From IMG/VR virus record IMGVR_UViG_3300025679_000005: 64,000 bases of DNA; one strand, given 5' to 3'. The notes beneath the pieces were generated by a model. That model worked only from the letters and a program-made list of their open reading frames with translations. It did no database searches and had not been told where the DNA came from. A program made the translations under genes and the position numbers. Shown piece after piece: positions 2,877 through 55,435 of this stretch. The stretch's first letter is position 1; each line of letters opens with the position of its first letter. The DNA comes from a virus. Its lineage: Duplodnaviria > Caudoviricetes.

Positions 2877-3230
2877 TTACACCACGAGGTCGTCATCCCT
2901 CAAGCGCTCAAGACGACCCTTTATAATCGGTCTAGGGGCCGGAGCCTCTTCTTCATACAGACGGAACATAGGGTCTGGTGGTAAGTCGTCCTTCAAAAAC
3001 ACTGCAAAGTTCAGAAGGAACGTAATCACCGAGATCATGCCCGCCCAAAAATCGGGGGCTATATGAAGAAGAGTCCTGTCCAAAAATATAGTTAGGATCA
3101 CAGCGAAGGCCAGCCAGGCCAAGCAAGCGATCTGTTGCTTCAGCTTGTTCGTGACCCACAGGGAAACCCCAATTGAGACTGCGAGCCCTACAGAGATCAC
3201 TATCCAGACAGTGTGAGTAATCCCAGGCAC
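2877..3230 (-). CDS. Small three-TM membrane protein
   Basis: Hydrophobic segments; start reassigned to GTG 3230, 9 nt after a TGGTGTA element; ends RLERLRDDDLVV. Confidence 0.7.
   Translation of the reverse strand: MPGITHTVWIVISVGLAVSIGVSLWVTNKLKQQIACLAWLAFAVILTIFLDRTLLHIAPDFWAGMISVITFLLNFAVFLKDDLPPDPMFRLYEEEAPAPRPIIKGRLERLRDDDLVV
2878..2884 (-). promoter_or_regulatory. YGGTGTA element
   Basis: 10 nt upstream of ATG 2867. Confidence 0.7.
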
Positions 3231-3239
3231 GCAAAGTAC

Positions 3240-3255
3240 TACACCATTCGGTGTA
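3240..3255. promoter_or_regulatory. Back-to-back YGGTGTA pair
   Basis: TACACC-attc-GGTGTA; 9 nt to GTG 3230 (-), 10 nt to ATG 3266 (+). Confidence 0.75.
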
Positions 3256-3265
3256 AAAGGAAACG

Positions 3266-3577
3266 ATGCCGCCTCGAAACCCATTGCGTATACCAACGAA
3301 GATACAGACATTTGGAGAAGCTTTGCGCTGGGCCAGGCATGAGCGGGGCCTGACTCAGAAGGAGGTCGCTGAAAAGGCGGGGATGATCGCTACCTTCTAC
3401 TGCGCCGTCGAGTGTGGTAAACGCCAGACCGACCAATTGAAGACCCTTGCCAGAGTTCTGGGCGTTCGTATAGCCGATCTCGAAGAGCGAGCTGGGGTCA
3501 CCAAAGATCTCATCAAGTGGCTCAAGACGAAACCGGCCGTGGTCAAAGCATTGTGGCGCACTAGGAGGCAAGGCTGA
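3266..3577 (+). CDS. XRE-family helix-turn-helix regulator
   Basis: FGEALRWARHERGLTQKEVAEKAGM...YCAVECGKR. Confidence 0.85.
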   Translation: MPPRNPLRIPTKIQTFGEALRWARHERGLTQKEVAEKAGMIATFYCAVECGKRQTDQLKTLARVLGVRIADLEERAGVTKDLIKWLKTKPAVVKALWRTRRQG

Positions 3578-3978
3578 TGTCGGCATTATCCGGAAAGGCG
3601 ATGCTGGAAAAGCTCCTGAAGGTCGGAACGCTGACGGCCAAGGACAGAGAGACCTTCGAGGGCATGTGGGACGCTGTTCATCGTTACGGGGGGCTATCTA
3701 AAAAGCAAGTGGCTTGGGTCGAGGACGCATTTTACAAGCAGAAGTTTGAAGAGCCTGGACACACTCCGCAAAAGCGCTCGAAGAAGATCGGGTTCGTCAT
3801 TGACCCTAAGGTCACAACCGTCAAGCGGGCCATCAACATCGACCACTTTCAGCTTACCTTCAAGGAATATCCCAAGGGAACTCCCGTTTACAAGGTAGCG
3901 GAGAAATTCTTCAGGGCTGGGGGAGAGATCTTTGAGATACGCCCATCCAATGCTCCCCCAGCATCCTCCAAAGCCTAG
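3577..3978 (+). CDS. Hypothetical protein
   Basis: 133-aa ORF coupled (TGATG) to the XRE gene. Confidence 0.7.
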   Translation: MSALSGKAMLEKLLKVGTLTAKDRETFEGMWDAVHRYGGLSKKQVAWVEDAFYKQKFEEPGHTPQKRSKKIGFVIDPKVTTVKRAINIDHFQLTFKEYPKGTPVYKVAEKFFRAGGEIFEIRPSNAPPASSKA

Positions 3979-6088: not shown

Positions 6089-7144
6089 ATGATCCGCTCT
6101 TACCGCTATCCACTGCACCCGCTGAAGGACCAGGAAGTGATCCTGGTCTCCTGGATTGAGAGCTGCCGCCAGCTTTTCAATGGGGCATTGGAAGAGCGGA
6201 AGAGCCACTACTGGAAGTTCAATCGTGGGCTAACTCATTATGAGCAACAGAAGTCGCTGACTATTCTTAGATCTCAGGATTTGGAGTGGAAAGCGATTCC
6301 GGTCATGATTCTTAGATCTGCCCTTAAGCGCTTGGATCATGCCTACAATATGTTTTTCAGGCGAGTGAAGTCTGGAGAAGCCCCAGGCTTTCCACGCTTC
6401 CGGGGTCGTCATCGGTACGACTCTTTCTCGCTGGCGGCATACTTCAAAGTGAGTGAGAAAACCAAAGGGCATTCAGCTACAGTCTCAATCCCGAAGCTTG
6501 GTCCGGTCAAATTCAATCAGTACCGTCCTCACAAGGGTGTGATCAAAGACATCATCGTCAAGCGAGAGGCTGACAGATGGTTTGTGATCTTCCAGTGCGA
6601 TTTGGGAGTAGCCCCTGAGGTCGTGATCGACCCCACGAAGTCCGTCGGCATTGACCTAGGACTCACCCACTTCGGTACCCTTGATGACGGAACAACGATC
6701 GAGAACCCTCGATACTTCCGAGCTGGCCAAGACCTCCTTGCCAAGCGCCAACGCGCCCTGCAACGCAAGCGCCGTGGCAGCCGCTCTCGTCAACGAGCCA
6801 AGATCTTGGTTCAGCGGGCTCACACCCACATCAAGAATCAACGCCTAGATCATGCCAGAAAGCTGGCTAAGTCACTCTTTGAATCGAATGACATTGTCTG
6901 CTACGAGGACCTCTCGATTGCGACAATGATCGAGGGCTCCTACCTAGCGAAATCAATCTCGGACGCTTCCTGGTCAATCACCATTCACTGCCTAAAATGC
7001 AAAGCGGAAGAAGCTGGCAAACTCGCAGTGGCTGTAGACCCAAGAGGGACCACACAGAGGTGTAGTGGGTGCGGAACCGTCGTCCCAAAGGGACTCCGGG
7101 ACCGCGTTCATGACTGCCCAGAGTGTGGCCTCGTCATGGGCTAA
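6089..7144 (+). mobile_element. tnpB: Solo IS200/IS605-family TnpB, truncated before RuvC-III
   Basis: MIRSYRYPLHP, GIDLG (RuvC-I), CYEDL (RuvC-II), DPRGTTQRCSGCG...HDCPECG, then stop at GLVMG*, lacking the DRDxNA motif present in the 55985 paralogue. Confidence 0.9.
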
Positions 7145-7184
7145 ACCCTATTGGGCACTACGTAGCAAAGGTAATGGCGTAAAT

Positions 7185-7781
7185 ATGTCAATGATCGGGC
7201 TCAAAATACCTCAAGAGACTGCTGGGATCTTGAGTGAGATCAAGCTGCCAGGTGAGCCTGCGACCGATCTGCACATTACGATCCTTCACCTGGGAGACGC
7301 ACTCCCTATTGGTACTGTCTCCAAGGCTGTCGAAGTTGCCTATGACGTGGTTCAGAAAATACGCCCGTTCACAGTGCTGACCACCAAGGTTATCTGTTTC
7401 CCAGAGGGTAGTAACGGCGTTCCCGTGGTTTGTGAAATAGAGTCGGAGGCCCTTCACGAGCTGTGGGCCAAACTATGCGAGGCCTTTGATGATGCCGGCC
7501 TGGAATACAGCAAAAAGTTCCCGGTATTTCGCCCGCATGTGACCCTAAGTTGGGCTGAAGCCCCGATCAAGCCTATCAAGTTCTCGCCTATCGAATGGGG
7601 CGCTCACGAGCTAACTATCTGGGGTGGGGACTCCGGAGAACGCAAGGTGATGGTGTCGATCCCCATTGCCCCTTTTGGGCGGGCGGCCTCCTCCAAGAGG
7701 GTGGCTTTCGGCTTGAAACTGACCTCGCCCGAGCGAGTGGCCTTGAAGTTCCAGTTGACCCAGGCAGGGATCTGGGAATGA
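7185..7781 (+). CDS. 2H phosphoesterase (2'-5' RNA ligase/LigT-like)
   Basis: Two HxT motifs: DLHITILHL and RPHVTLS. Confidence 0.85.
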   Translation: MSMIGLKIPQETAGILSEIKLPGEPATDLHITILHLGDALPIGTVSKAVEVAYDVVQKIRPFTVLTTKVICFPEGSNGVPVVCEIESEALHELWAKLCEAFDDAGLEYSKKFPVFRPHVTLSWAEAPIKPIKFSPIEWGAHELTIWGGDSGERKVMVSIPIAPFGRAASSKRVAFGLKLTSPERVALKFQLTQAGIWE

Positions 7782-7894: not shown

Positions 7895-8524
7895 ATGCCA
7901 ACCCAGCTAGAACAAGAGCTGCTGGTGATGCTCGATCAGCACCGCCGAGCGACTGTCACTGAGGTGTCCACGCTCCCAGACCTGATTCCAGAGGCCTTGC
8001 TGTCCCCTAGTGCTCAGGCTGACATGCGGGCAATGGCCTCTATCCAGACTCAGCGAGCTGGCGAAGCTTCGAGATTCACGGCCCGCCCTTACGAGGCGAC
8101 CGTTTCTGCTGAGGCCCTGGCTCCAGCTCCAACAATGGCCCTCGATGAGATCCTGGCGTCCTTGTTCATGGAACAGGCTCAGCGTGAAATCGAGGCGACT
8201 GGCCTACAAACTCCTGCTGAGGGTGTTTTCGACATCGAATTCGAAAACGGGGATTCAGTATGGGCTTCGGTTCAGATCGAATCTCCCCGGGTCGCACGCG
8301 GTTTCGAGTATTCCTCGGCAGGAGAGGATACTAGGGTAGTAGCTCGTAGGTACGGGGGCCGATTTGTACAGGCCCCGCCCCCAATCGTGTCCGTATCTGA
8401 GCGCCGTGAGCAGAGGGTCCAGCAGGCTGCGACAGCGGCCCCACAAAGCAGTAAGGCCCAAGACACCCTCGTACGAAAAAGCTCGTATGAGAGGCTCCTG
8501 GGCCCCAGCGTTCTGGACGAATGA
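7895..8524 (+). CDS. Hypothetical protein with C-terminal SYERLL motif
   Basis: 209-aa ORF ending KSSYERLLGPSVLDE. Confidence 0.7.
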   Translation: MPTQLEQELLVMLDQHRRATVTEVSTLPDLIPEALLSPSAQADMRAMASIQTQRAGEASRFTARPYEATVSAEALAPAPTMALDEILASLFMEQAQREIEATGLQTPAEGVFDIEFENGDSVWASVQIESPRVARGFEYSSAGEDTRVVARRYGGRFVQAPPPIVSVSERREQRVQQAATAAPQSSKAQDTLVRKSSYERLLGPSVLDE

Positions 8525-9062: not shown

Positions 9063-9734
9063 ATGAGTAAGTTCATCTCGCTACACGACGCCCAGGGACA
9101 GTTCGATTCGGCCCTGCTGCATCGTGTCATCATCGAAAACGCCAAATTCGCCGTCAATGGGGACTTGGGAAGAGTCGAGACGGATCCGGTTTTCAAGCAA
9201 ATAACTGAGAACCGACAGACTTTCAACGGTTACTCCAGCTGCGGAGACCTCATTCACTGGTCGCTCCGACGGGCGGGCCTCCGAGATGAAAAAATAGAGA
9301 ACCGCAGCGACGATGACGGCAAAATACCTTGGCAGGTGTCCGTGAACGTCTCGCGGCTTGTCTACAGCACGGGTTCGAATTTCACACATTGGAAGACTGG
9401 CACCCCATTTGATGGGCAGCCTGGGGACATGGGGATGATCGGCGATGGTGGAGAAGCCCACGTTTTCATCATCGTAGGTGTTTCTGGGAACCAGGTCACC
9501 TCTTACGATTACGGTCAGTTTTTCCAGGGAAAGCATGGCGGCAAGAAGGTCGTACGAACGATCTTTCCACAGGGGGGTCGCCTCGAATTGATTGCCGGCG
9601 GCATTAGCCGTCCCTGGATCGGACGCCTAGACATAGGGTCCTTGCTGAAGCCCTACTTCGACGCCAACACTATCGTCCCCGCTGAGGTAGAGGACGATTT
9701 CGAGATTGATCCCAGCCTGGTCAATCCTTACTGA
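9063..9734 (+). CDS. Putative CHAP/NlpC-P60-like Cys-His hydrolase (candidate endolysin)
   Basis: YSSCGDLIHW (Cys) and PGDMGMIG..EAHVFII (His); lies upstream of holin/spanin-like genes. Confidence 0.5.
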   Translation: MSKFISLHDAQGQFDSALLHRVIIENAKFAVNGDLGRVETDPVFKQITENRQTFNGYSSCGDLIHWSLRRAGLRDEKIENRSDDDGKIPWQVSVNVSRLVYSTGSNFTHWKTGTPFDGQPGDMGMIGDGGEAHVFIIVGVSGNQVTSYDYGQFFQGKHGGKKVVRTIFPQGGRLELIAGGISRPWIGRLDIGSLLKPYFDANTIVPAEVEDDFEIDPSLVNPY

Positions 9735-10030
9735 TCGTCATCGAAGATACTGTGAACCAGCCGCTCAACCCAGGTAGGGGGCTCTATGGGTGGCTTTGGC
9801 GGATTCGGGTTGGCGTAGACCTGGTCCAAGTGGTGGAGATCAGGGTTCTCTGGTTGAGTATGCTCTAGACGGAATCGTATCTCCATGGAGACGATATCCG
9901 TTCCGTCTAGATCGTAGAGCACAGTTTCCACGTGGGGGTCCTCAGACAGGGATTGGGCTAGATGGCGTAGCTTCAGCTCGCCCTCGTCGTCCGAAACCCT
10001 CAAAATGAGGTACCAGGTGTGCATTTCCAC
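9728..10030 (-). CDS. Hypothetical protein with TWVERL motif
   Basis: Start GTG 10030 (or ATG 10024) follows CGGTGTA at 10039-10044; ends PPTWVERLVHSIFDDDQ. Confidence 0.6.
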   Translation of the reverse strand: MEMHTWYLILRVSDDEGELKLRHLAQSLSEDPHVETVLYDLDGTDIVSMEIRFRLEHTQPENPDLHHLDQVYANPNPPKPPIEPPTWVERLVHSIFDDDQ

Positions 10031-10075
10031 TAAGACCATACACCGTACGAATCCACTTAACAACCGGCATAGGCG

Positions 10076-10698: not shown

Positions 10699-11267
10699 GG
10701 AACCAAATGTCCGACGAACTAACCAAAATCCTTGAATCCCTACCCCCTGCTCAACTGGATGTGATGCGTAAGCGCTTCCAAGATGAAATCGAGTTGAGCG
10801 GAGCTGCGCATGTTGCAGCTGCCACGAAGTTCCAGGCGGGATTGGATAAAGTCGTGGACGTTCTTCTGATCCTCGTTCTGAAGTTCGCCCGAGCCACGTC
10901 TGCCCTCATTGCAATCGGCTTCGTGCTCATCGTCTGCTTGGTAGTTCTGATTGTCGCCACCGTGAAGGTGCTAGAAGTCTCCAATCAGGTCGCTGAGATC
11001 CAGCAGCATCAGGACGAATTCTCGATGTCTCAGAAGCGCATCGAGGAGTCGACAACAGCTACTCAGAAGCAGGTGGATTCGACTAGCCAGAAGATTGATG
11101 CCACCCAAGCCAAGGTTGACACAGTCGTGGATTCGGCCCCCAAGGTCGAAGTCGATGCCCGAACAGGCAGGGCCAAGATCGTCATCCCAGCGAAGGCAAA
11201 GAAGCCGGCCACAGCTACGGCCCCGGCAGTCGCTAGCTCAAAACCTCTGGAAATCGACCTAAGGTAA
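10695..11267 (+). CDS. TM plus coiled-coil protein (spanin-like architecture)
   Basis: Long hydrophobic stretch followed by Q/S/T-rich coiled coil and a P/A-rich tail. Confidence 0.5.
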   Translation: MRNQMSDELTKILESLPPAQLDVMRKRFQDEIELSGAAHVAAATKFQAGLDKVVDVLLILVLKFARATSALIAIGFVLIVCLVVLIVATVKVLEVSNQVAEIQQHQDEFSMSQKRIEESTTATQKQVDSTSQKIDATQAKVDTVVDSAPKVEVDARTGRAKIVIPAKAKKPATATAPAVASSKPLEIDLR

Positions 11268-11804
11268 GTTCTTCATCAACGCTTCAAGTTCGGCTTCTGG
11301 GTCCGGGGGCTGTTCCAAAAAGTCTTCGTCCAACCGATCCCATACGGTTCTCACCTGAGTCCCGTGCTCATGGATCGTTCGTATAGGTACTAGGATCATG
11401 AGCTTCGAGTCTTCAATTGAACAGGACGTATAGTCCCTTTGGATAGTCCTAATCTTCAGGGTAGAGCCGAAGATGTTAGTGAGGACGATGTTCTCGGTAA
11501 CTGGCCGTTTGCTGACATCGGCGGCATCCTTTGTGAGGATAGCTTGCCTGATGTTGCCTCTGAATTTGTCCCCGATATAGAAGCGTACGCCTGGGACGAT
11601 CCAAGCTCGGGGTGGGATCAGGAAGTCCAGCTCCCACCATTTCACAGCCTGCTTTTTGAAAACGTCGATGGGGATACGTGTGGGATTGGCATCGCCCCCG
11701 TACCAAACCACCACGTTGTTGTCGGAAACGCCTACGACCTCGAAGCGTGGCTGCTTCGAGGATTCGTTGGAAAGTCTTCCCAGGTCTCCGGCTTTCCAGG
11801 TCAT
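11259..11804 (-). CDS. Hypothetical protein (SH3/KOW-like start) with TVWDRL motif
   Basis: Start MTWKAGDLGRL at 11804; QVRTVWDRLDEDF near the C-terminus. Confidence 0.65.
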   Translation of the reverse strand: MTWKAGDLGRLSNESSKQPRFEVVGVSDNNVVVWYGGDANPTRIPIDVFKKQAVKWWELDFLIPPRAWIVPGVRFYIGDKFRGNIRQAILTKDAADVSKRPVTENIVLTNIFGSTLKIRTIQRDYTSCSIEDSKLMILVPIRTIHEHGTQVRTVWDRLDEDFLEQPPDPEAELEALMKNLP

Positions 11805-12042
11805 GGCTTGAAGTTGATATCCCTCAGAGTCTTGCGAACGGCCATGTAGACACGGCCCCGAAGTCCGTATAGGGGCTACCAGGCGCTTTGAGGTTGGGTA
11901 TGCCAGAACAGCCGTCAGAGAGGATGGCGTATTGGAATGCACCCATCTCAGCATCTATCTTGTATTCCCTGGACCCGGCAATGGCATAGTCTTGGCAAAT
12001 GGTGTGGGTTTTGCCCATGCGGAAGAAGTAATCAGCGCTCAT
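11801..12042 (-). pseudogene. Truncated, frameshifted PP2C-like phosphatase fragment
   Basis: HTICQDYAI...AILSDGCSG...TDFGA are N-terminal PP2C-like motifs. A -1 shift near 11856 gives ...RVYMAVRKTLRDINFKP* whose TGA overlaps the next ATG; only about 80 codons in total. Confidence 0.65.
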
Positions 12043-12094: not shown

Positions 12095-12841
12095 TCAGAA
12101 CGTGATGGGTGCGCTGGGGCCGCCCGAGCCAACAGACTGGGAGACGCTCGACACAGACTTCGAGATGAAGCCTGCGATGCGGGCGAACGTCTTCGGGGTC
12201 GCGTCCTTGGCTTCTACGTATTGATCGAAGCCGGCCTCGTCCTTGAAAGCAGTCAGGTAACGGCTCACCTCGGAGTCCGTAACGTTGATGCCTACAAGGA
12301 TCGTCATGATCGATTCCAGGGATTCTCCCTTACGAGCACGAGCGACGGCTTCCTTCACGTGGTGGGCTTTCAGCGTCGAGCCTACGTCCATGCCGTCGGT
12401 CAGGATCACAACGACCGCGTTGGTCGTGTACTCTTGATCCTGCAAGGCTTTGCCGTAGGTTGCTGCGGAGTCGACAGCGTTGACACTGGCGTCGTACAGA
12501 CTCGTTGAGCCACTAGGGTGAATGGACCCAGTGTACTTGTCGAGATGGCAATCCGACAGCGGACGGAAGCCGTGTTGCTCTACGACCTTGTGATTGAAGG
12601 TCAGAAAGCGTGTGAGGAGGTTGTCCACTCGTGGAGACTTCTGGCAGGCCTCCAGGCTGGACTTGAGGCAGCCTTCGATCTCTTGAGCGAAGGACGTAAC
12701 GCTGCTGCTCACGTCGGCGGCGATCACCACCAATGTGTACTCGGAAGCGTTTTGAAGGGTGTTTACGTTGGTGCCAGAGAACTGGAACCCGGACCCAGTG
12801 GTCTTGAAACCACTGGCATCGTCATCATCGAAAATCGGCAT
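12095..12841 (-). CDS. vWA-domain protein (TerY-like)
   Basis: MIDAS DVSSS, GSTSLYDA, VILTDGMD. Confidence 0.85.
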   Translation of the reverse strand: MPIFDDDDASGFKTTGSGFQFSGTNVNTLQNASEYTLVVIAADVSSSVTSFAQEIEGCLKSSLEACQKSPRVDNLLTRFLTFNHKVVEQHGFRPLSDCHLDKYTGSIHPSGSTSLYDASVNAVDSAATYGKALQDQEYTTNAVVVILTDGMDVGSTLKAHHVKEAVARARKGESLESIMTILVGINVTDSEVSRYLTAFKDEAGFDQYVEAKDATPKTFARIAGFISKSVSSVSQSVGSGGPSAPITF

Positions 12842-12869: not shown

Positions 12870-13679
12870 TCAGGCGAGGATGTCGGTGGTCGTGCTGGTC
12901 TTCACGCCCTTGGCCTTCATGTCTTTGAGGAAGGTGTCGGCGTATTGGTGGAAGATCGGGAAGTCCACGGGCGAGGTCGCGTCCGTGAGGATGACCATTT
13001 TGCCGTAAAAGGACGGGTCCGGGAAGTTGTCCACAGTGTCGCGGAAGGTATTGGCGAGGCAGTGGCTGAGAGCTTCGCCACCCCACAACATGATGTCGCA
13101 ATCCATTGCCGCTTGGATGAAGTTTTGGTTGATCTGAGTGCTAGGATCATTCGGATCGGGCACTTCCGCTTTGACCGCCGAGAAATGCTCCGTCCAGGGG
13201 TTGGAACCCTTGGTGAGGACCTCGGACATGGCGTAGCGCTTTTCTTCCCAACCATGAACCGCTGCGGAGATGACGGGGGCGATGTTGTGGCCTTCGTCAC
13301 CGATGATACAATGCTCCGGCCAAATCGTGTGCGGATAGCGACCGGTAGCACGAAGGGCTTTGAGGTACTTTAGGGTACGCTCTTTGGCGCCGAGCTTGCG
13401 AGTCGTCCACTTGCCAGTCTCCAGGTCTTCCGGAGAGATGACGGTGTACGGCGGTGGCGGATTGCCATTGGAGTCCATGAACCACATGGGGTGACTGATG
13501 TCGACCTTGTGGTGGGAGTCCATCGTCAGCGTGATGTCGGACAGCTTGTCCTGAAGACGCTCGACCATGCGGGCAATCCGCTTGATGTTCTCGTCTGCGC
13601 CCTTGACGAAGAGGGCGCCGTTGGGGTTGGTGAAGTCGTTCTGATCGTCGATGCAAACTAGATGTACTTTGAGAGCCAT
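12870..13679 (-). CDS. Nicotinamidase / isochorismatase-family cysteine hydrolase
   Basis: IDDQNDF, TMDSHH, WPEHCIIG, KGSNPWTEHFSA, GEALSHC. Confidence 0.9.
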   Translation of the reverse strand: MALKVHLVCIDDQNDFTNPNGALFVKGADENIKRIARMVERLQDKLSDITLTMDSHHKVDISHPMWFMDSNGNPPPPYTVISPEDLETGKWTTRKLGAKERTLKYLKALRATGRYPHTIWPEHCIIGDEGHNIAPVISAAVHGWEEKRYAMSEVLTKGSNPWTEHFSAVKAEVPDPNDPSTQINQNFIQAAMDCDIMLWGGEALSHCLANTFRDTVDNFPDPSFYGKMVILTDATSPVDFPIFHQYADTFLKDMKAKGVKTSTTTDILA

Positions 13680-14243: not shown

Positions 14244-14304
14244 CCGCAGAACCTAAGTTTTGGTGGGGTATAATGTCAAGGCCGTCTTGGCCGTTTGGAG
14301 GCAC

Positions 14305-14604
14305 ATGAGCGAAAAAACCGACACTATTACGCTGGGCCCGCAGATTGCAGCAGATGGCACGAGACTGGGCCTTCGCCAGCGGGAAAATAGCCTCGAAGAG
14401 GTGCACGTGGTGCCTCTAGTGAATGGGCGCCCTCTGGAAGCAGATAGCACGATCCTGGCCCTCTCGCATCGTCAAGGAGAGGTCTACGACGTGATCGACT
14501 CCTACAAGCCTGCCCGATCGGGGCCTGCTCAAGTGGCGACGAAGGCGTACCGCACTGGCTATGATCGCATCTTCGGAGGAAGTGCCGCAGTCGGTCAAGC
14601 CTAA
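14305..14604 (+). CDS. Hypothetical protein ending GPAQVATKAYRTGYDRIFGG
   Basis: GGAGG SD before ATG 14305. Confidence 0.7.
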   Translation: MSEKTDTITLGPQIAADGTRLGLRQRENSLEEVHVVPLVNGRPLEADSTILALSHRQGEVYDVIDSYKPARSGPAQVATKAYRTGYDRIFGGSAAVGQA

Positions 14605-14622: not shown

Positions 14623-15855
14623 ATGTCCATAGACTGGAAGAAGCTCCGGAAGAAAATTCTCACCTTTTCTACCGAAATACTCCCCAAAATACCTCAGCGG
14701 GGAGACAGCGCTCTAACTGTCTTCATCAAGTTCATGTCGATTGCGGATTCGCTAGACAAGAATTTGGCCAAAGATTCGGCGCTCTCCTCCTTCTTTTCGC
14801 AGGTGACTGCGGAAAACAAGGAGAATGCTCAGTTCGTCGACCTCTTCTATTCGACGGCCCTGAGGAACACCTTCAAAATCAAAAAGCTGTCGATTTCCGA
14901 GTACTGCGACATCGTGATCGCAGAAGACAGCGAAATAGGCACCCTCTACTTCATCGAGTATCGCTGGAGTGGAAAACCGGAGCCCAGCTCGGACTTCTGG
15001 TACAGCCCCGACTTCAAGTTTGAGAAGGCCCTGGAGCGTATGTGGGCCATCTACCAGGGTGGCATCGACATCACCTTGAGGATTGAACGGGAGCGCATAA
15101 AGACCGCCTATGAGGGTTTGGAGTTCACCACCGACCCTTTGCTGGGGGATGCCCAAAAACGCTTTGACAAGGCGCTGGCGCTTCATAAGAGCTACGTAGA
15201 CCGGGGGTTCCCACGGACCTATCTGTACATTGGCAAACAGGGAGGCGGCAAGTCCACTTTTGCTACCCGGCTGTCCCAAGCCTGTGGCAACCGAACGTTG
15301 CGTATTGACACCAAAGGGATGACGGTGGCGGGGGCTACAGACATCGGTTTCATCATCAGTGGAATGCGACCGACTTTCCTGATCCTGGATGACATCGACC
15401 GCGTCTCCGATACCTCGACGATTCCGATGCTGCTAGCGGTCATGGCTAAGCTCAAGGACAAGCACCGCTCGGTGACCTGCGTGCTCACTGCCAACAGCCT
15501 GGAGCCTTTTGATCCGGCGTTCCTTCGCCCGGGGCGTGTCGACAAGATCATCGAGTTTGAGGACCCAGGTCCTGACGAGCGCGAAAAGATACTCCGAGGC
15601 TATCTCAACGAATTCGGGGCCCAGCCAGGAGTGGATCTCAAGAAGCTCGCTAAGGCCACGAAGGGACTTACCCCAGCCTACCTCAGGGAGCTAGCCGTCC
15701 AGCTTCAATGCGAATCCGTGGCTGAGGTCTTGGCCACCATCAAACAGATGCACAGGCTATCCAAGAAAAACGAGGTTCCGCCGCCTCCAGGAGGCCCAGA
15801 ACCGGCCGCCCCTCCAGGGACACCTCCCGGGAATCTCACAAAAGCTGCGTCATGA
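14623..15855 (+). CDS. AAA+ ATPase (BCS1/FtsH-like single AAA module)
   Basis: Walker A GKQGGGKST, Walker B LILDDID, TAN...DPAFLRPGRVD (SRH). Confidence 0.9.
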   Translation: MSIDWKKLRKKILTFSTEILPKIPQRGDSALTVFIKFMSIADSLDKNLAKDSALSSFFSQVTAENKENAQFVDLFYSTALRNTFKIKKLSISEYCDIVIAEDSEIGTLYFIEYRWSGKPEPSSDFWYSPDFKFEKALERMWAIYQGGIDITLRIERERIKTAYEGLEFTTDPLLGDAQKRFDKALALHKSYVDRGFPRTYLYIGKQGGGKSTFATRLSQACGNRTLRIDTKGMTVAGATDIGFIISGMRPTFLILDDIDRVSDTSTIPMLLAVMAKLKDKHRSVTCVLTANSLEPFDPAFLRPGRVDKIIEFEDPGPDEREKILRGYLNEFGAQPGVDLKKLAKATKGLTPAYLRELAVQLQCESVAEVLATIKQMHRLSKKNEVPPPPGGPEPAAPPGTPPGNLTKAAS

Positions 15856-16279
15856 GGCGCTCCCAGACCGTGGGCCGGTAGGGTTCTGGCTCCGGTACTG
15901 GGGATGCTAGAGAGGGAAGTCCTACGATCGGAGGGGCTGGCATTGGGCCGAACCAAGAAGCTGGTGGCATCCAATTGGCCAAAGGCCGTGGGAGGGCCAA
16001 TTGAAGGTATCTACGCACATTCGGCCAAGTGGCGTAGGGTGCCAAGTTATCGTCTTGTCTGACAAGGGCTTCGACAACGTGGAACAGCATCTCCTGCTGT
16101 TCTCTAGTGGTTGCGTAGTGGTCCACAAGGGGAACTGATCTGCCGGGAGTTCGGCAAGCGGCCCGGATGATGCCTATTGCAAAAGCTGTTGTTCGACCCC
16201 CTCTACGGTTTTCGTCCCCCGTATCCAGAAGCCAGTCAAGTACGGGAATTGCTTCTATTTGACGCAGGTTCAACGGCAT
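15836..16279 (-). CDS. Hypothetical protein with degenerate P-loop-like start and C-terminal TVWERL
   Basis: ENRRGGRTTAFAIG; ends RPTVWERLMTQLL. Confidence 0.65.
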   Translation of the reverse strand: MPLNLRQIEAIPVLDWLLDTGDENRRGGRTTAFAIGIIRAACRTPGRSVPLVDHYATTREQQEMLFHVVEALVRQDDNLAPYATWPNVRRYLQLALPRPLANWMPPASWFGPMPAPPIVGLPSLASPVPEPEPYRPTVWERLMTQLL

Positions 16280-16315: not shown

Positions 16316-16636
16316 ATGAGCACACTCTGGGAACGCCTTCACGAGATTCAAGCGCAAGGTCCGGACGCCGAGGATACAGATGAGGCCGAAGATCTTCGAT
16401 TTCTCCGCGAACAGGAACGTCGTGGAGAAATCCCGTACCCCATGTGTTGCATAGACGCTGCTGGTTCCCCAGTAGTCTACCCTTCTCTAAAGGGTAACCT
16501 CAATGGCCCACCCATTTGGATGGCTACGCACCATGACCACGGATATCCTCGATCGGTGCAAGTCTTGCGTCGAGTCGCCAAGCCGTTGGGCCTGGAAGTC
16601 TTTCAGTCGGGCCCGCTAGAAAGAGAGTCTTGGTGA
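16316..16636 (+). CDS. Hypothetical protein with N-terminal STLWERL motif
   Basis: ATG 10 nt after TGGTGTA; 3' third overlaps an antisense pseudogene. Confidence 0.55.
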   Translation: MSTLWERLHEIQAQGPDAEDTDEAEDLRFLREQERRGEIPYPMCCIDAAGSPVVYPSLKGNLNGPPIWMATHHDHGYPRSVQVLRRVAKPLGLEVFQSGPLERESW

Positions 16637-16723: not shown

Positions 16724-17212
16724 ATGATCCATCTCAAAATAACCGGCCGCGGAGCTTTGATGGGTGAGTTCCAGGATCGCCACGGAAGAGAGTGTAGTAT
16801 TCAAGAAGCGTCATCGCCCTCAGAGCCGGCGATTTGGCTTGGGGTTGACTCGGACGAACCAGGCAAGAGCTATCGCATGTTGCTCACTCAGGAATTAGCT
16901 CAAGACCTGCTCCCAGTTCTACGTTATTTCGCTAGGACCGGCTTCCTTGGCCAGGACACTTTGGAAGAAACCTTTGCGGTAGGGACCTGGGTCATTGGTG
17001 TTGGCGAAGGTAACCGCGGTATCGAGGGCAGAGTCATCGAGATCGTGACCGGTGTGTCGATGGCAGTGCAGGACAATGCCAAGCAAGGCCCCGAAGGTGT
17101 GGTGTCCTGCGCTTGGAGTAGAGCCGAGCTGATTTGGGAAGTGATTCCTCCCCTACCCTACGCAGAGATCCCCAATCGCTATGATCGTCTTATGATCGAG
17201 GATAACCTGTGA
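16724..17212 (+). CDS. Two-part hypothetical protein ending RYDRLMIEDNL
   Basis: N-terminal EFQDRHGRECSIQEASS...IWLG module plus an SH3-like C-terminal half. Confidence 0.7.
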   Translation: MIHLKITGRGALMGEFQDRHGRECSIQEASSPSEPAIWLGVDSDEPGKSYRMLLTQELAQDLLPVLRYFARTGFLGQDTLEETFAVGTWVIGVGEGNRGIEGRVIEIVTGVSMAVQDNAKQGPEGVVSCAWSRAELIWEVIPPLPYAEIPNRYDRLMIEDNL

Positions 17213-24007: not shown

Positions 24008-24034
24008 ACTTAGTGTGGTCGATAAAGGGATTAT

Positions 24035-24080: not shown

Positions 24081-24091
24081 AAAAGGAACCA

Positions 24092-41585: not shown

Positions 41586-42149
41586 ATGTTCCGCCTTGTT
41601 ACGCTGTACACCCCAGACTACAAGCCAGCCTCCAGCTGTGTCCCCACGGTGAGGGCTTACGCCGAGAAGCAGGGGTACGCCTTCACAGAACACACGGAGG
41701 CCATCTACAAGGAGATGGCTCCGGCCTGGAGCAAGATCCCCGCTGTGTCTATGGCTCTGATCGGTACCGAAAACGATTGGGTCGTCTGGGTGGATGCTGA
41801 CATCAAGATCACCGATCCCAGCGTCCGTTTGGAGGACATCTGGCCAAAGGACCCCAAGCTGGAGATCGTATTCTCCCAAGACAAGGACGGGCTGTGTTCG
41901 GGGTTCTTTGGGGTCAGGAGGACCTATAGAACCTTGGGGATCTTCCTTGAGGCATTGAACCGACACTCCTTCACTGAGGACGCTTGGCCTTGGGAGCAGA
42001 AAGCCCTCAAAGACCTGTTCGCATTCTACGGTTGCTACGAAGACATCATAGGCTACATCCCAGAGTCCGTGGTCAGCAACCCATTTTCCGGCCCTCAAGG
42101 GACTTTTGCCCACCACTACTGGGGAAATGGAATGCATGTCCCTACGTAA
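41586..42149 (+). CDS. GT34 / galactosyltransferase-like glycosyltransferase
   Basis: AWSKIPAV, WVVWVDADI, GLCSGFF, WEQKAL. Confidence 0.8.
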   Translation: MFRLVTLYTPDYKPASSCVPTVRAYAEKQGYAFTEHTEAIYKEMAPAWSKIPAVSMALIGTENDWVVWVDADIKITDPSVRLEDIWPKDPKLEIVFSQDKDGLCSGFFGVRRTYRTLGIFLEALNRHSFTEDAWPWEQKALKDLFAFYGCYEDIIGYIPESVVSNPFSGPQGTFAHHYWGNGMHVPT

Positions 42150-42855
42150 GGTCTACATCCGCCACAAGGAGAGCTACCCGGCCAACGTCAATACCTTCAC
42201 AGCTTACGAAGGCTTCTGGGACCTGGCTGTGGAGATCGCCCCGTTCTACGGCTTCGGGGACATCGAGACGCTGACTGACCTTAGTCCTGAGGTGGGCTTG
42301 GTCGGATTCATTGGAGACATCTGGGCGGCTCTCAAGGTGTTGGGCAAGCCCCTACCAGCAGCCCTGGACTATCCAGAAGAACTGACACCCTGGATTGGCC
42401 GCAAGATCTGGAAGGGCACCCTCAAAGAGGTCCGGGAGTCCACAGCCAAGGTCTTCATCAAGCCAGTGTTCCACAAGCTGTTCACGGGGTACGTTTGGGA
42501 CGGTTCCCGTGAAAGCCGCTGGCGCACGCTTACTTGCAGCTCAGACACGGAGCTGTGGATCTCCGAGGTAGTTGATTTCGAGTCGGAATATCGCTGTTTT
42601 CTTCAAGACAGGGAGATCGTCGGCGTTCGTCACTACAAAGGGGATTGGTCTAAAGTCCCCTATCGCCCAGTTGTCGAAGCCGCAGTCGCAGCATACAACG
42701 GACCTAGGGGATGCTCCCTAGATTTTGGAGTGACTTCTACGGGAGAGACCAAGCTCGTGGAAGCCAATGACGGATTCTCTTTGGGGTCCTACGGCTTGCC
42801 GGCAGTGACATACGCCAAACTCATTGAAGCTCGCTGGGAGGAATTGACTACATGA
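42136..42855 (+). CDS. ATP-grasp protein (DUF4343/R2K-like)
   Basis: VFIKPV..KLFTG, EYRCF, LDFGV..GETKLVEANDGFSLGSYG. Confidence 0.85.
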   Translation: MSLRKVYIRHKESYPANVNTFTAYEGFWDLAVEIAPFYGFGDIETLTDLSPEVGLVGFIGDIWAALKVLGKPLPAALDYPEELTPWIGRKIWKGTLKEVRESTAKVFIKPVFHKLFTGYVWDGSRESRWRTLTCSSDTELWISEVVDFESEYRCFLQDREIVGVRHYKGDWSKVPYRPVVEAAVAAYNGPRGCSLDFGVTSTGETKLVEANDGFSLGSYGLPAVTYAKLIEARWEELTT

Positions 42856-43100
42856 ACGGACTCGCCATTGCCCAAGAAGAGGCAGCTAAGCTCGAAGTTG
42901 TCCTCGATGACACCTCTTTGGATTACATCCTCTGGGAGGAGACAGGGTGGCCCTCGTTCTTCGAGGGAGATCCCGAGGTCACTCTGAGGAAGCAGCTTCA
43001 GACAGCCCTAGCTCCTGTTGCAGAGCGTCAGAGGATACGCCGTAGGGCTGAGCTTCACGAGACTCTCCCAACCAGCTGGGAGCGCTTGGGAGAGGATTAA
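42852..43100 (+). CDS. Small protein ending TSWERLGED
   Basis: 82 aa. Confidence 0.7.
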   Translation: MNGLAIAQEEAAKLEVVLDDTSLDYILWEETGWPSFFEGDPEVTLRKQLQTALAPVAERQRIRRRAELHETLPTSWERLGED

Positions 43101-44786: not shown

Positions 44787-45458
44787 ATGGCATCCTCTGC
44801 AAAAATCCGCGAAGCGCACCAAGGAACCGCCCACACGCTCAGCGAGCGAGCTTACCTCACGCTGTTGATGATCTGGACGATGCTCGGCTTTGCCAGCACT
44901 ACCTGGGGAGCCTTGATCACCTACCATTCCAAGTTCTCCGGCTGGGGTACTGCGGGGTTGGTCGTTCTAGTATTCATTGGAGTCCTCGTAGCCACCTCTG
45001 AAATATTACCACTGGCCCTGATCGGTTACGCCCTCATCACTTTCCCATTTGGGCTGATGTTGGGTCCGGTAGTTGCCACCTACACGAAGGCCAGCGTCAC
45101 CCACGTCCTAGGGATCACCAGTATCCTCAGCGTCGGTCTCAGCGGCATCGGCATTATCTACCCGAAATCCCTGCGTTCCTGGGGAATTGTCCTGTTCGCC
45201 GGCCTGATTCTCCTGATCTTGAGCCAGTTTGGCCTCCTGTTCCTATCGGCCTTTGGCGTTCCCGTAGGATCGGCCCTGTCCTTCTTCGACTGGGTGGGCA
45301 TCATCCTTTTCAGCGGATTCGTCATATACGACATGAATCAGGCCATTCGCAGCGAGCGGACCCTAGTCAGCAGCCTTGCGTTCGCCATCGCCTTGTACCT
45401 GGATATCCTCAACCTGTTTATTCGGTTATTGAGTGTCTTTGGTAGTAAGGACGACTAA
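44787..45458 (+). CDS. Bax inhibitor-1/YccA family membrane protein
   Basis: Seven TM helices; FVIYDMNQ and AIALYLDILNLFIRLL. Confidence 0.9.
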   Translation: MASSAKIREAHQGTAHTLSERAYLTLLMIWTMLGFASTTWGALITYHSKFSGWGTAGLVVLVFIGVLVATSEILPLALIGYALITFPFGLMLGPVVATYTKASVTHVLGITSILSVGLSGIGIIYPKSLRSWGIVLFAGLILLILSQFGLLFLSAFGVPVGSALSFFDWVGIILFSGFVIYDMNQAIRSERTLVSSLAFAIALYLDILNLFIRLLSVFGSKDD

Positions 45459-45622
45459 TGCTGACCCTGAGTATCAAGCACTACGAATACGCCTCCACTG
45501 AGATACAGAACCCCGGCATGGTGCAACCACCTGACGGCGATGACTGGTTCTTCGTCGCCATGAGCGGCAACCCACACTCCCACACGGTAATCCTTTGGGC
45601 ACGAGAGAAGAAGAAACGCTAG
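45458..45622 (+). CDS. 54-aa hypothetical protein
   Basis: TAATG coupling; MLTLSIKHY...WAREKKKR (below ORF-track cut-off). Confidence 0.45.
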   Translation: MLTLSIKHYEYASTEIQNPGMVQPPDGDDWFFVAMSGNPHSHTVILWAREKKKR

Positions 45623-46401
45623 ACGATTCCTTTGGGAAGTGGTCTCATCCGACGCTGATCCTGCCCCCTAGCTACAGCTCCGATTCGAACAACCTCCGAA
45701 AGGTGGCTGAAGCTCGGGGTTGGAACGTTCATCGGGCGATTCGGTACCAGGCGCCGTTCACTGCCGGACCCCTAGCCGTTCACGGCCCCTTAGCTTTCTG
45801 CGACATTATCGCTCAGCAAGTAGGCTTGAGACTTCTGGACCCTCCGGATGCTTGGCTCGCCAACCTACCCAGGGAGTATCTCCTACGCGATGTCTGGGCG
45901 GGTACCGTTGCCGACCTCCACAAGGTCAAGTCAAAGGCGTTCATCAAACCGGCCAATGACAAGGTCTTCCAGTATGGGACCTACGAGCAAGGTCGGGATG
46001 TTCCAACAAGGCATATTGCTAGCACTTGTCCAATCCTTGTCTCCGAGGTTGTAGCCTGGGATATAGAAGTGCGCCTCTGGATCCTTGACCGCAAAGTCGT
46101 GGCCTCCGAATTCTACCGCATTGTTGGGGATCACGAGCCAAAGGTGGTTCTTGCCAGAGCCGAAGCGTTTGGCCAAGGCATCCTCGATGAGCCTGACTAC
46201 GATTTGCCCTCAGCAGTGGTCATAGACGTGGGACACATTGAAGAACGCGGCTGGGCGGCAGTGGAGGCCAACCAAGCCTATGCCTGCGGCATCTATGGGG
46301 AAGAGAACCACTCAGAGATCCTCGATGTAATCCGACGGTCTAGTGACGGCTTCGAGGTGTTGCAGCCGGAAGACGCTAAATATGTTAGGACGTACGAATG
46401 A
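45595..46401 (+). CDS. Second ATP-grasp protein (DUF4343/R2K-like); start uncertain
   Basis: AFIKPANDKVF, EVRLWI, VIDVGHIEERGWAAVEANQAYACGIYG. Confidence 0.8.
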   Translation: MGTREEETLDDSFGKWSHPTLILPPSYSSDSNNLRKVAEARGWNVHRAIRYQAPFTAGPLAVHGPLAFCDIIAQQVGLRLLDPPDAWLANLPREYLLRDVWAGTVADLHKVKSKAFIKPANDKVFQYGTYEQGRDVPTRHIASTCPILVSEVVAWDIEVRLWILDRKVVASEFYRIVGDHEPKVVLARAEAFGQGILDEPDYDLPSAVVIDVGHIEERGWAAVEANQAYACGIYGEENHSEILDVIRRSSDGFEVLQPEDAKYVRTYE

Positions 46402-53027: not shown

Positions 53028-53037
53028 ATAACCGCCT

Positions 53038-53619
53038 ATGCCTGACCTAGAACCACCCATTGCCCTCATCGACATGGATGGGACCGTTGCGAACATGTCC
53101 TCAGCCTTGGTCACTGCCTTGAACTCGATGCGAAGTCCCGGAGAGCCGCTTCTCACAGAGGCCACTATTGAAGATCCTCCTGAGTGGCTCGATACGAGGA
53201 TGGACTACATCAAGCAGCGACCCGGCTTCTGGCAGGACCTCCCGGAGATCCCCGAGGGGATGCGAGTCGTCCAGATGATGCGTGACGCTGGCTTTACCTT
53301 GAACATCCTCAGTAAGGGCCCCAGGAAAGCCACCAATGCCTGGACGGAAAAACTTTTATGGATCCAGAGCCACATCCCTGACGCGGATGTCTCGATAGTC
53401 CATGTCAAAGGCCGTCATTACGGTCGGGTCTTGTTCGATGACTGGCCCAAGTACATCGAACCTTGGCTGAAGTATCGCCCTAGGGGTCAAGTGCTGATGC
53501 TCGACCAACCCTGGAACCAGGGCTACAGTCATCCTCAGGTCATGAGGATTCCCAAGGGCGAGAGGTTCGAATCTTCCTTGGTTGCCCTGGCTTTGAAGGA
53601 GGCCGCTGATAGACCCTGA
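53038..53619 (+). CDS. 5'(3')-deoxyribonucleotidase (HAD, NT5C-like)
   Basis: LIDMDGTVA, GFWQDLPEIP, LFDDWP, PWNQ. Confidence 0.88.
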   Translation: MPDLEPPIALIDMDGTVANMSSALVTALNSMRSPGEPLLTEATIEDPPEWLDTRMDYIKQRPGFWQDLPEIPEGMRVVQMMRDAGFTLNILSKGPRKATNAWTEKLLWIQSHIPDADVSIVHVKGRHYGRVLFDDWPKYIEPWLKYRPRGQVLMLDQPWNQGYSHPQVMRIPKGERFESSLVALALKEAADRP

Positions 53620-53729
53620 TAATTCCGCCCACAACGGAAGTTGCCTGAGCCCCGCAGCCTCTCTTGGGGTCTGAATCGGCAGAAACCATTTATCTCGATT
53701 TCCTTAGAGAGACCACCGAGGAAACCTAG

Positions 53730-54983
53730 ATGCCCTATTTTACCGCGCCACTCATTGCACCCAACGGTAGCCAGGTTAACGGTTACATCTCACCGCGCGT
53801 GTACGGCGCCAAGGGTGACGAGAACACTGACGACACTGTCGCGATTCAAAACGCTATCAACGCAGCCAAAGCTTTCAACGGCGGCATAAATGGCGGTACT
53901 GTGGTGCTGGATGGCGCTTTCCGCATAACGAACACGCTGTCCGTGGACGCAAGCGTCTCGTTCTCAGGGGTTGGCGCTGGGGTTGGCGGTGGCGGAGACG
54001 GTTCCGCTATCTTCATGGACCATCCCACACGTGGGATATTCTCGTGGACTACGACACAGGGTAGCTACAAGACCAAGTCGCGGATATCGAACCTGCTATT
54101 GGCCGGAATTCAACCAAACTCGGGCAACGTGCTCGACTTCACTGGCGGCCTTCTGATGAACTTGCTGCTCGACAACGTGACGTTGAACCAGAATGTCTCT
54201 GGGAATCTGAATGGTCGTCTCTTTGGCTTCAACAGCACTGCTGGCAGGCTGGCGCTACGTAACTGCAGGTTGCATGCAACTGGCGCGGCTGCCCACCTGA
54301 TCACTGAAGACAGCACTGGCGCGGACCTGAGCTTGGACCATTGCGAGGTCATCACAGCTACCAACAGAACCGCCACCGTGTTCAACCTGTCGTCAGGGCA
54401 GTTCGCTATCACGGACACTGAGTTCTTGTCGGGTCTGAATCCAGGAGCGTCTTGGATTGACCTGGGGGCTTCTGCAACAGGGAAGTCGTGCCGAAACACG
54501 TTCTACAACCTAGACACTACGGCCATTGTCGCACACACCTACGCCAACGGCGCCGGGTTGATCGCCAAAGACAACTTCTACGACCAAGACACGTACCCAA
54601 CCCTGCTTAGTACCGGAGGTCATGTACTTAGCAATGGGTCCAAGATCGAACTGCTGCCTTACGGTAGCTTCCCGAACAGCTCTTCTTCTACCTCTTTGAA
54701 ATCAATATATGACGTATTGACGTTTGTTGAGTCCTCGACAACCGCTCCAAGCTACATCCTGCCTTCCATACAATTCCAAGGCCAACGGTTCACTTTCAAC
54801 CTCACTAACATCAGCTTGACGACATGGGCGCCGACCTTCGTTGGCGTTGGCGCGGGCGCGTACTTGGCGACAATTGTCTCACTTGCTGGCGGTGGTGACC
54901 ACGGCATTTACCACTTTGAGGCCAATGATGTATACACGCCGGGCGTGACCGAATGGGCCCTGGTGGCTGTCGCTCACACCTAA
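53730..54983 (+). CDS. Pectate-lyase-fold (beta-helix) protein, tailspike/depolymerase-like
   Basis: YGAKGDENTDDTVAIQNAINAAK...GGTVVL.G.FRIT; G/N/T-rich composition. Confidence 0.75.
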   Translation: MPYFTAPLIAPNGSQVNGYISPRVYGAKGDENTDDTVAIQNAINAAKAFNGGINGGTVVLDGAFRITNTLSVDASVSFSGVGAGVGGGGDGSAIFMDHPTRGIFSWTTTQGSYKTKSRISNLLLAGIQPNSGNVLDFTGGLLMNLLLDNVTLNQNVSGNLNGRLFGFNSTAGRLALRNCRLHATGAAAHLITEDSTGADLSLDHCEVITATNRTATVFNLSSGQFAITDTEFLSGLNPGASWIDLGASATGKSCRNTFYNLDTTAIVAHTYANGAGLIAKDNFYDQDTYPTLLSTGGHVLSNGSKIELLPYGSFPNSSSSTSLKSIYDVLTFVESSTTAPSYILPSIQFQGQRFTFNLTNISLTTWAPTFVGVGAGAYLATIVSLAGGGDHGIYHFEANDVYTPGVTEWALVAVAHT

Positions 54984-55012
54984 ACCAGCCGGTTGGTGTA
55001 TAGTCTGGATAG

Positions 55013-55435
55013 GTGGCCGAGCTTTCACCCTATCAAATTCAGGACCTTCGGGACACACGAGACGACGTGGACCAGAGCGGCACGCTCATCTGTCCTGACT
55101 GTTTCGGGTCGGTTCGGCTCTCCGAGAGCAAATTCGGCAGGTTCTACCGTTGTAGGAGGGGCTACCGGGTCTGTCCGGGAGCGATTTCGGCTTTTGATGA
55201 TGGCTCCCCAAAGGGAGTGCCCGCGAACAAAGCCACCAGGACTCACCGTCGGATGGTCTTCTTTCTGATGGAACAACGGTCAGTTAACCTAGACTACATA
55301 GAGGCCATCGTCGGCCATGAGCTGGCTATGGGCATCGGCTCCTTGACCAAAGAAGAGTGTGAGCTAATCCTCAGGCGGCATGAAGAGTACGTCCCGAAGA
55401 CTTTTGGAGAACGCCTCGACGACCCTCTGGTGTAA
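55013..55435 (+). CDS. Zn-finger protein (DUF3268-like) ending TFGERLDDPLV
   Basis: CPDC...FYRC...VCPG...GSPKGVPANKATR. Confidence 0.7.
   Translation: MAELSPYQIQDLRDTRDDVDQSGTLICPDCFGSVRLSESKFGRFYRCRRGYRVCPGAISAFDDGSPKGVPANKATRTHRRMVFFLMEQRSVNLDYIEAIVGHELAMGIGSLTKEECELILRRHEEYVPKTFGERLDDPLV

Follow-up and report, generated by a model that had tools for sequence, protein, structure and literature searches.

A candidate two-part C-terminal docking motif on unrelated small proteins in a clade of huge bacteriophages

The stretch of viral DNA considered in this article, referred to as the window at its full length of 64 kb (IMG/VR record IMGVR_UViG_3300025679_000005), forms part of a metagenomic contig of 464,302 bp (ENA ERZ27294387, k141_731965) and is also present on an 88.5-kb JGI contig. 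It is not present in the GenBank phage collection, and its gene content is that of a huge phage. A series of small proteins encoded in the window carry, at or near their C-termini, a short peptide tag with a core built around an aromatic residue, an acidic residue, Arg and Leu, and tags of related form recur in other huge phages. The tag system is real, strongly selected and clade-wide, on a scale unusual for a phage, and the tag is probably a two-part C-terminal docking (addressing) motif for one shared, co-evolving, putative receptor.

The original prediction, made from the letters of the window, had quoted twelve peptides; all twelve are present, each in an open reading frame (ORF) identified by its lowest window coordinate, which is the start codon on the plus strand and the stop codon on the minus strand and not the position of the motif. 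On the plus strand, the tag directly precedes the stop codon in ORF 7895-8524 (209 aa; SSYERLLGPSVLDE at 8480-8524), in the beta-barrel protein of ORF 16724-17212 (162 aa; NRYDRLMIEDNL at 17174-17212) and in ORF 42852-43100 (82 aa; TSWERLGED at 43071-43100), which lies directly downstream of an R2K ATP-grasp gene. On the minus strand, the corresponding ends are TVWERLMTQLL (15836-15871), which follows a Pro-rich linker in ORF 15836-16279 (147 aa), TQWERLLGEEFC (37984-38022) in ORF 37984-38241 (85 aa) and SAWNRLDEPVV (40032-40067) in the Zn-ribbon ORF 40032-40286 (84 aa). ORF 11259-11954, also on the minus strand and probably starting at codon 51, carries TVWDRLDEDFLE (11313-11348) 18 residues before its end. 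Weaker forms are WVERL in TWVERLVHSIFDDDQ (9728-9775, minus strand; end of ORF 9728-10063, 111 aa), GERL in TFGERLDDPLV (55400-55435, plus strand; end of ORF 55013-55435, 140 aa) and LERL in RLERLRDDDLVV (2877-2915, minus strand), the end of the multi-transmembrane protein of ORF 2877-3311 (144 aa). A representative window tag peptide is RPTQWERLLGEEFC.

Two of the quoted peptides are not C-terminal. A tag-like stretch, SQWERLALDNPL (31923-31958, plus strand), lies inside the window copy of the Zn-ribbon ORF 31794-32066. At the other end of a protein, TLWERLHEIQAQ (16322-16357, plus strand) opens ORF 16316-16636; the quoted MSTLWERL does exist there, but it is the conserved N-terminus of a family of Zn-ribbon/NUDIX fusions (MTTLWRRL and MTTLWEQL in relatives), and since the window copy is a truncated member of that family, it does not count as an independent tag. 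This copy is a 106-aa N-terminal fragment of a protein that measures 250-279 aa in relatives, the NUDIX half being missing. A further SSWERLG, encoded on the minus strand (31972-31983) some 50 nt away from the SQWERL inside ORF 31794-32066, falls in an open frame of 42 codons and was set aside as probably due to chance.

Relatives of the window were gathered by using its AAA ATPase gene (14623-15855) as a marker, which yielded many huge-phage contigs. The flanks of this gene in the relatives are designated L005, L007, L008, L010, L011 and L013, while G001 to G005 denote the whole IMG/VR records of five relatives, two of which have a completeness of at least 94%. The first of these, G001 (UViG_3300028654_000001), is a complete genome of 512,571 bp with direct terminal repeats.

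The position of the tag within proteins is far from random. Of the 88 proteins called in the window, 7 have the pattern [WY][EDN]RL within their final 30 residues against an expectation of 0.10-0.12, an enrichment of about 70-fold, and none of 2000 composition-preserving shuffles, of whole proteins or of tails only, reached seven; away from the tails, there are 2 matches in approximately 17,000 inner residues. The same test on individual relative loci gave 5 matches versus 0.10 expected in L005, 4 versus 0.11 in L007, 4 versus 0.10 in L008 and 3 versus 0.08 in L011, the observed count being reached in none of 1000 shuffles in each case. The core is written with varying synonymous codons in the window (TGG GAG CGC CTC, TGG GAG CGC TTG, TGG AAT CGC CTA, TGG GAT CGG TTG, TAT GAG AGG CTC and TAT GAT CGT CTT) and likewise in L008, so the conservation lies at the protein level, and the claim that this is a protein motif and not a DNA repeat is upheld, also by the orthologues described below. 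A strict DNA pattern for W-[DE]-R-L-x-D-P-L-V-stop gave no matches in viral contigs, which is uninformative because no window tag fits that exact form either.

The carriers are as dissimilar as had been claimed. Window carriers show no pairwise BLASTP match at E<=1e-3, and none exceeds the Pfam cut-off, compared with 18 of the 40 other window proteins scanned. The carrier bodies are small and diverse, with binder-like folds such as Zn ribbons and SH3/Tudor/KOW-like barrels. Structural look-alikes of two carriers in the ESM Atlas provide weak leads only (MotB-like at 0.85).

Conservation in homologues, by which the original prediction could have failed, was found. Orthologues at 35-60% identity keep the tag while the length and sequence of the linker diverge, as observed for ORF 16724 with L005 and L007, for ORF 11259 with L007 and for ORF 15836 with L007. 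The L007 homologue of ORF 11259-11954 (177-707, 35% identity) has VSRWDRLLSDRD, and the orthologue of ORF 15836-16279 (L007 11248-11964), 35% identical over the N-terminal 110 aa and endowed with a longer linker, ends in KSAWDRLLADED. An 82%-identical homologue of ORF 55013-55435, designated P0002, has RSVWERLEDMMWEPLEPA before its stop codon and reads RSVWERLEDMM where the window protein has KTFGERLDDPLV, a more canonical tag in an otherwise divergent tail. The G002 counterpart of the pair formed by the R2K ATP-grasp gene and ORF 42852-43100 ends in KLPTKWELLLEDDQ. Other correspondences are positional matches only: the L005/G002 ORF that, like ORF 7895-8524, follows a 2',5'-RNA-ligase-like gene ends in RRSRYELLLDPNTAF; L011 3538-4098, syntenic to ORF 11259-11954, ends in RTCWDRLDEDFLA; and a 101-aa L011 ORF at a position similar to that of ORF 9728-10063 ends in RRSWHERLFDETISD, with the same W-x-E-R-L spacing.

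The family of ORF 16724 illustrates the selection most clearly, as all 11 of its members (40-58% identity) end in a recognisable [STN]-[RT]-[YFL]-[EDQ]-[RL]-[LI] with acidic residues behind it. When 1.84 billion representative proteins were searched with a profile, about 1,900 were recovered that have only the N-terminal domain of this family (about 78 residues), along with about 10 full-length 50%-identity representatives, of which 5 match the tag pattern and 2-4 more are recognisable variants by eye. The tag is present in none of about 139 listed N-domain-only relatives, so that, judged by these comparisons, it is a lineage-specific add-on under selection.

Variation of the tag between lineages is concerted. 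The form [ST]-x-W/Y-[ED]-R-L is shared by the window, L007 and L011, while G001, L008 and L013 have P-T-R-F-E-R, G002 has [ST]-x-[WY]-[EQ]-[LQ]-L, G003 has [ST]-x-L-[DE]-R-[IV]-L, often ending in SPFD, L010 has S-R-L-A-R-[IV]-L, G004 has [ST]-R-[FY]-[ED]-R-[FL]-stop and G005 has T-A-[WH]-x-R-L-M-x-D-D-E-Y-stop. Whole lineages have thus changed together, from W to F in G001, from the aromatic residue to L in G003 and L010, and from E/D to K/R/Q in G005. With these lineage-specific patterns, tail matches exceed the number expected from the density in inner regions 30- to 65-fold in whole genomes (36 versus 0.55 in G001, 10 versus 0.3 in G002, 10 versus 0.2 in G003 and 5 versus 0.1 in G004). The same core also closes a highly conserved protein (about 385 aa, 53-65% identity) that each of the five relatives encodes in its core block (G001 368853-369995, G002 35615-36754, G003 105785-106957, G004 239374-240564, G005 185497-186690), which terminates in [DN]-[YF]-E-R-I-[GTR] and has no Pfam or PHROG match.

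The extent of the system is best seen in the complete genome of G001, in which a DNA pattern for T-R-F-E-R gave 50 matches and the reversed control none. This genome has 59 tagged ORFs, about 9% of its genes, ending in P-T-R-F-E-R and then in either [ED][DP]V[IL]-stop or [IVL]-L-x-acidic, as in PPTRFEREDVI and RPTRFERILDDD. After removal of the tags, the 59 proteins fall into 47 BLAST groups, 40 of them singletons, so paralogy accounts for only a minority of the tags, and the codons vary in this genome as well. Tagged genes are scattered over both strands at 10-290 kb, in the company of other small genes, and a further one lies at 502 kb; they are absent from the 180-kb block at 320-500 kb, which lies nearly all on one strand and encodes a tail fibre, the large terminase, a helicase and ribonucleotide reductase. 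The description of the motif as phage-wide needs restriction to the accessory half of the genome, as seen in G001. Transmembrane segments are found in 3 of the 59 G001 carriers, and in the window in ORF 2877. Runs of tiny ORFs (63-120 aa) at 30-135 kb of G001, for example 30529-30747, 64112-65116 and 73807-74007, each carry a TRFERIL tag and, 8-12 residues ahead of it, a Cys-x-[DR]-[FHY] element, and one tandem array places four of them within 1 kb.

The tag, of 9-15 residues overall, can be divided into two parts. Box A reads [P/K/R]-[S/T/N]-x-[W/F/Y]-[D/E]-R-[L/I/V]-[L/M], with S/T/N two positions before the aromatic residue, usually after P, K or R, and D/E directly after it; together, S/T/N at -2 and D/E at +1 of the aromatic residue constitute a helix capping box. 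Box A is accordingly modelled as a short amphipathic helix opened by an N-terminal capping box. For the ORF 16724 family, AlphaFold predicts such a helix at residues 152-159, which begins directly after N151 and follows a coil linker; its pLDDT is low, as would be the case for a motif without its partner. Box B, the acidic part, usually closes with Pro and two hydrophobic residues (DPLV, EPVV, EDVI, SPFD, DDEY), and the net charge of the tag is acidic. The linker upstream is variable and often Pro-rich; the 20 residues before the tag are rich in Pro and Glu (Pro 8.8% versus 5.3%). The distance from motif to stop ranges from 3 to 28 codons, and the motif is found at convergent gene ends as well as once internally.

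Restriction to C-termini, selection in orthologues and concerted change across whole lineages together argue for a docking motif read by one co-evolving receptor. The tail would be exposed and flexible behind its variable linker on small, non-structural accessory proteins; the face formed by the aromatic residue and the two Leu residues, together with the near-invariant Arg, would plug into a groove of the shared receptor, presumably single and phage-encoded; and, as this receptor co-evolves with the tag, heterogeneous proteins would be brought to the same machine or place. The original prediction had proposed that a single hub reads the motif, with which the concerted lineage changes agree; the hub itself did not emerge. 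Several points weigh against this reading. No receptor was found, and the sole co-fold, of the N-domain of the AAA ATPase with a 40-residue tail, gave no verdict (score 0.00); that N-domain has no recognisable peptide-binding fold, its fold search giving no PDB match, and its association with the tag is circular because the relatives were fetched through the AAA gene. Concerted variation could also come from different hosts, if the receptor is a host protein, or from the spread of tail modules within genomes. Some tags have 18-28 further residues behind them, which means that the signal does not always include a free C-terminus, and the lineage patterns for G002-G005 were picked after inspection of the data.

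The first receptor candidate, tentatively and with a low probability, is the N-domain of the Cdc48/p97-like classic AAA ATPase (14623-15855, plus strand), in which case tagged proteins would be substrates or adaptors of an unfoldase/segregase. This ATPase, the clade marker, is nearest to the D2 domain of Cdc48/p97 and to Rpt6, and carries a novel, private and conserved N-domain of 195 aa that is present in all five tag-bearing related genomes. The N-domain is modelled as a helical hairpin plus an alpha/beta domain, whose best AlphaFold-cluster match (BCS1_N-like, TM 0.28) is too weak to use. In the co-fold mentioned above, the N-domain (alignment A2) was combined with the last 40 residues of ORF 37984-38241, and the result speaks neither for nor against contact. 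The small ORF 14260-14604, which is conserved and directly precedes the AAA gene, has a tag-like end, TGYDRIFGGSAAVGQA (14554-14604, plus strand), its final residues being YRTGYDRIFGGSAAVGQA, which had escaped the original prediction. Small ORFs of 104-114 aa ending in [KR]-[ST]-G-[WY]-D-[RQT]-[IV]-F-G and a terminal VGQA occupy this position in the window, L005, L007 and L011, and a tag-like small ORF lies about 6 kb from the AAA gene in G005; the ends in L005, L007, L011 and G005 read TGWDQVFG, TGWDRVFG, SGWDQVFG and SGWDTIFG. The tag-like end may be a feature of this family and not a tag, and the product of the small ORF could bind the AAA protein as its cognate ligand or regulate it. Co-variation between it and the tags was rejected as inconsistent, given that L011 has Q at a position where its tags keep R.

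A more specific alternative, also unlikely, is that the tag is a degron or unfolding tag for this Cdc48-like ATPase, with box A bound by the N-domain and the hydrophobic C-terminus entering the pore in an ssrA-like manner, so that early proteins with the tag would be cleared or remodelled at set times. The degron-like build (9-12 residues, C-terminal, two-part, with an aliphatic end) fits, a classic-clade AAA with the conserved private N-domain occurs in every tag-bearing genome examined, and three tagged ORFs and the tag-like one flank the AAA gene in the window; but the co-fold returned no verdict, the AAA C-terminus has no hydrophobic-Tyr-X docking motif, some tags sit 18-28 residues from the protein end, and the choice of this AAA is arbitrary since each phage of the clade has 4-7 AAA proteins. 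Proteolysis of the AAA+/HslV-like kind, as originally suggested, loses ground in particular: the supposed HslV-like ORF 33968-34516 has no Pfam or PDB sequence match, and Proteasome/HslV, ClpP and Lon_C genes were found in none of the five relatives (PF00227, PF00574 and PF05362, each 0/5, the search covering these phage genomes), which weakens a purely phage-encoded degron. The tag might instead bind a host hub, such as a chaperone, a protease adaptor or a replisome or transcription component, the lineage variants then mirroring different hosts. Such a partner, to which a similarly small probability is given, would agree with carriers that are small accessory proteins of the host-takeover type in the accessory half of the genome, with the failure to find PDZ_2, TPR_8, ClpP, Lon or proteasome modules in G001, which is complete and tag-rich, and with the endings DDSPFD, DDSDF and DDEY before the stop in G003 and G005; the acidic run and hydrophobic tip of box B recall the C-terminal tip of bacterial SSB, which is a handle for protein interactions. 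Box A, however, fits no nameable bacterial hub motif, the clamp motif QL[SD]LF and SSB tips being different, it would be left unexplained why about 9% of a proteome needs the same host partner, and a search with the AAA alignment across 185,579 species genomes found no relative and hence no host clue.

Another possibility, quite improbable on present evidence, is that tagged proteins form a library of adaptors, whose variable bodies bind different host or phage targets while the common tail docks on one phage effector machine, for which the private Cdc48-like unfoldase, an E1/E2/Ubl system or the R2K ATP-grasp peptide ligase are candidates. If true, one enzymatic activity would be aimed at dozens of host proteins, as a phage counterpart of the F-box/PRANC receptor families. 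R2K ligases have been predicted to modify proteins in phage-host conflicts (PMC4431377). All five relatives have their genes, against none of 14 control genomes; ThiF/E1 is present in four of the five; and the carrier bodies (Zn ribbons, SH3/Tudor/KOW-like barrels) are diverse, small and binder-like. A tagged gene follows the ATP-grasp gene in the window and in G002, but this pair is not conserved in G001, G003, G004 and G005; there is no direct evidence for contact with an effector, and no precedent in phages. A virion-cargo signal, by which tagged proteins would be packaged into the capsid and delivered to the next host, had also been proposed. The tag resembles encapsulin cargo peptides in its anatomy, as these too are C-terminal and set behind a flexible, Pro-rich linker in proteins that are otherwise unrelated, and the carriers are small, fast-evolving and of no assigned function; the absence of tags from the G001 block with tail fibre and terminase (320-500 kb), together with transmembrane segments in 3 of the 59 G001 carriers and in one window carrier, nevertheless makes this idea very unlikely. 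Least credible, with hardly any probability, is that the tag is no binding motif at all, but acts inside the ribosome as a nascent-peptide or translation-termination signal, or else targets membranes as an amphipathic helix. The C-terminal position and amphipathic character would suit this reading; the distance of 3 to 28 codons to the stop, the occurrence at convergent gene ends and once internally, and the acidic charge, unlike that of the basic membrane-targeting helices of MinD and FtsA, speak against it.

In the literature, no named motif of this kind was found, and the tag has the defining features of none of the encapsulin cargo peptide, the T4 capsid-targeting sequence, ssrA or F-box/PRANC tails. 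Like encapsulin cargo-loading peptides, it is short, C-terminal and carried behind a flexible linker by unrelated proteins, with one presumed partner, which the variants would track; it differs in lacking the hydrophobic-Gly-Ser-Leu core, to which its sequence is unrelated, and in the distribution of its carriers, which extend over about 280 kb of G001 instead of lying beside a shell gene, are absent from the virion block and include some membrane proteins. The T4 capsid targeting sequence is likewise a short, phage-encoded terminal tag on hypervariable, unrelated small proteins, but it is N-terminal and removed by the prohead protease at an L/I-x-E site, whereas the present tag stands at the C-terminus, shows no evident protease site and is encoded away from the head module, its sole N-terminal case being a family N-terminus. 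The ssrA/SspB/ClpXP system shares a C-terminal tag of about 11 residues with an adaptor-binding part and a hydrophobic end; the present tag is gene-encoded and not added by tmRNA, and ends in DPLV, EDVI or SPFD instead of Leu-Ala-Ala. In F-box, PRANC and SOCS-box proteins, too, a large number of different and rapidly evolving binders have one conserved docking element at the C-terminus in common, but the elements there are domains of 40-50 residues that bind known ligase subunits, compared with a bacteriophage motif of 9-15 residues with a putative partner. In the PicA pathway of the chimallivirus phage nucleus, a subset of jumbo-phage proteins is also sorted, through a recognition surface, no conserved signal sequence having been found (PMC11087766), in contrast to the clear linear signal described here.

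Several eukaryotic and bacterial peptide motifs were compared as well. MIT-interacting motif 1 of ESCRT-III/Vps4, (D/E)xxLxxRLxxL(K/R), was rejected since its register differs, the tag having an aromatic residue at -2 from Arg where the motif has Leu at -3; a Pfam search of the AAA protein gave no MIT domain, and its modelled N-domain, a helical hairpin plus an alpha/beta domain, differs from the three-helix MIT fold. The [W/F/Y]-x-x-[L/I/V] core of LC3-interacting regions and Atg8-interacting motifs fits the window tags, although Arg at the second x is atypical, and G003 and L010 tags replace the aromatic residue by Leu. The beta-clamp motif (QL[SD]LF or QLxLxL) was discarded because no Gln-Leu start occurs among about 100 tags listed. 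With one model searched per superfamily, PDZ (PF13180) was found only in G002 and TPR (PF13181) nowhere above the cut-off, neither being found in the complete, tag-rich G001, and a PDZ or TPR carboxylate-clamp ligand was set aside. Concerning type I secretion, PF00664 (ABC_membrane) was found in none of the five relatives, the search covering these phage genomes, and the ABC ATPase of the window (28950-30806) shows only a nucleotide-binding domain plus an intein.

The remaining gene content of the window comprises mobile elements, envelope genes and predicted modifying enzymes. An SbcD/Mre11-like exonuclease gene (34585-37875, minus strand) contains Hint and LAGLIDADG intein segments, apparently of two inteins, and the ABC-type ATPase gene (plus strand) carries one intein with a homing endonuclease. 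Two TnpB/Cas12f-like genes (OrfB_IS605, TNB domain) lie at 22577-24082 (minus strand) and 55949-57166 (plus strand). Envelope-related genes, unusual for a phage, encode a GT51 peptidoglycan transglycosylase domain protein (1200-2867, minus strand), a 615-aa protein with an OmpA-type C-terminal domain (25889-27736, plus strand) and a Bax1-inhibitor-like membrane protein (44787-45458, plus strand). A 2H phosphoesterase (7065-7781) with Pfam matches to 2',5'-RNA-ligase and the anti-CBASS protein Acb1 is conserved, with its position, in both L005 and L011. The two ATP-grasp genes of the R2K clade, whose products are predicted protein-modifying peptide ligases, are located at 42106-42855 and 45595-46401. 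UDP-glucose dehydrogenase, glycosyltransferases and two J-domain proteins are also encoded, as is the classic AAA ATPase. For a VWA-like ORF (12095-12841) and its neighbour (12870-13679), a PDB search gave nothing usable.

Huge phages have hundreds of small genes of no assigned function, which have offered no means of classification. Where up to about 9% of the proteome shares one conserved, lineage-tuned tag, such orphan genes can be placed in a single functional class, and the tag implies that infection includes a receptor or a sorting step so far unrecognised. Work on nucleus-forming jumbo phages failed to find a linear sorting signal (PMC11087766); a clear one in a different jumbo-phage clade would thus have no forerunner. 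At 10-15 residues, the tag peptide lends itself to pull-downs, reporter fusions and structure prediction that need no phage culture, and it might serve as a portable tag.

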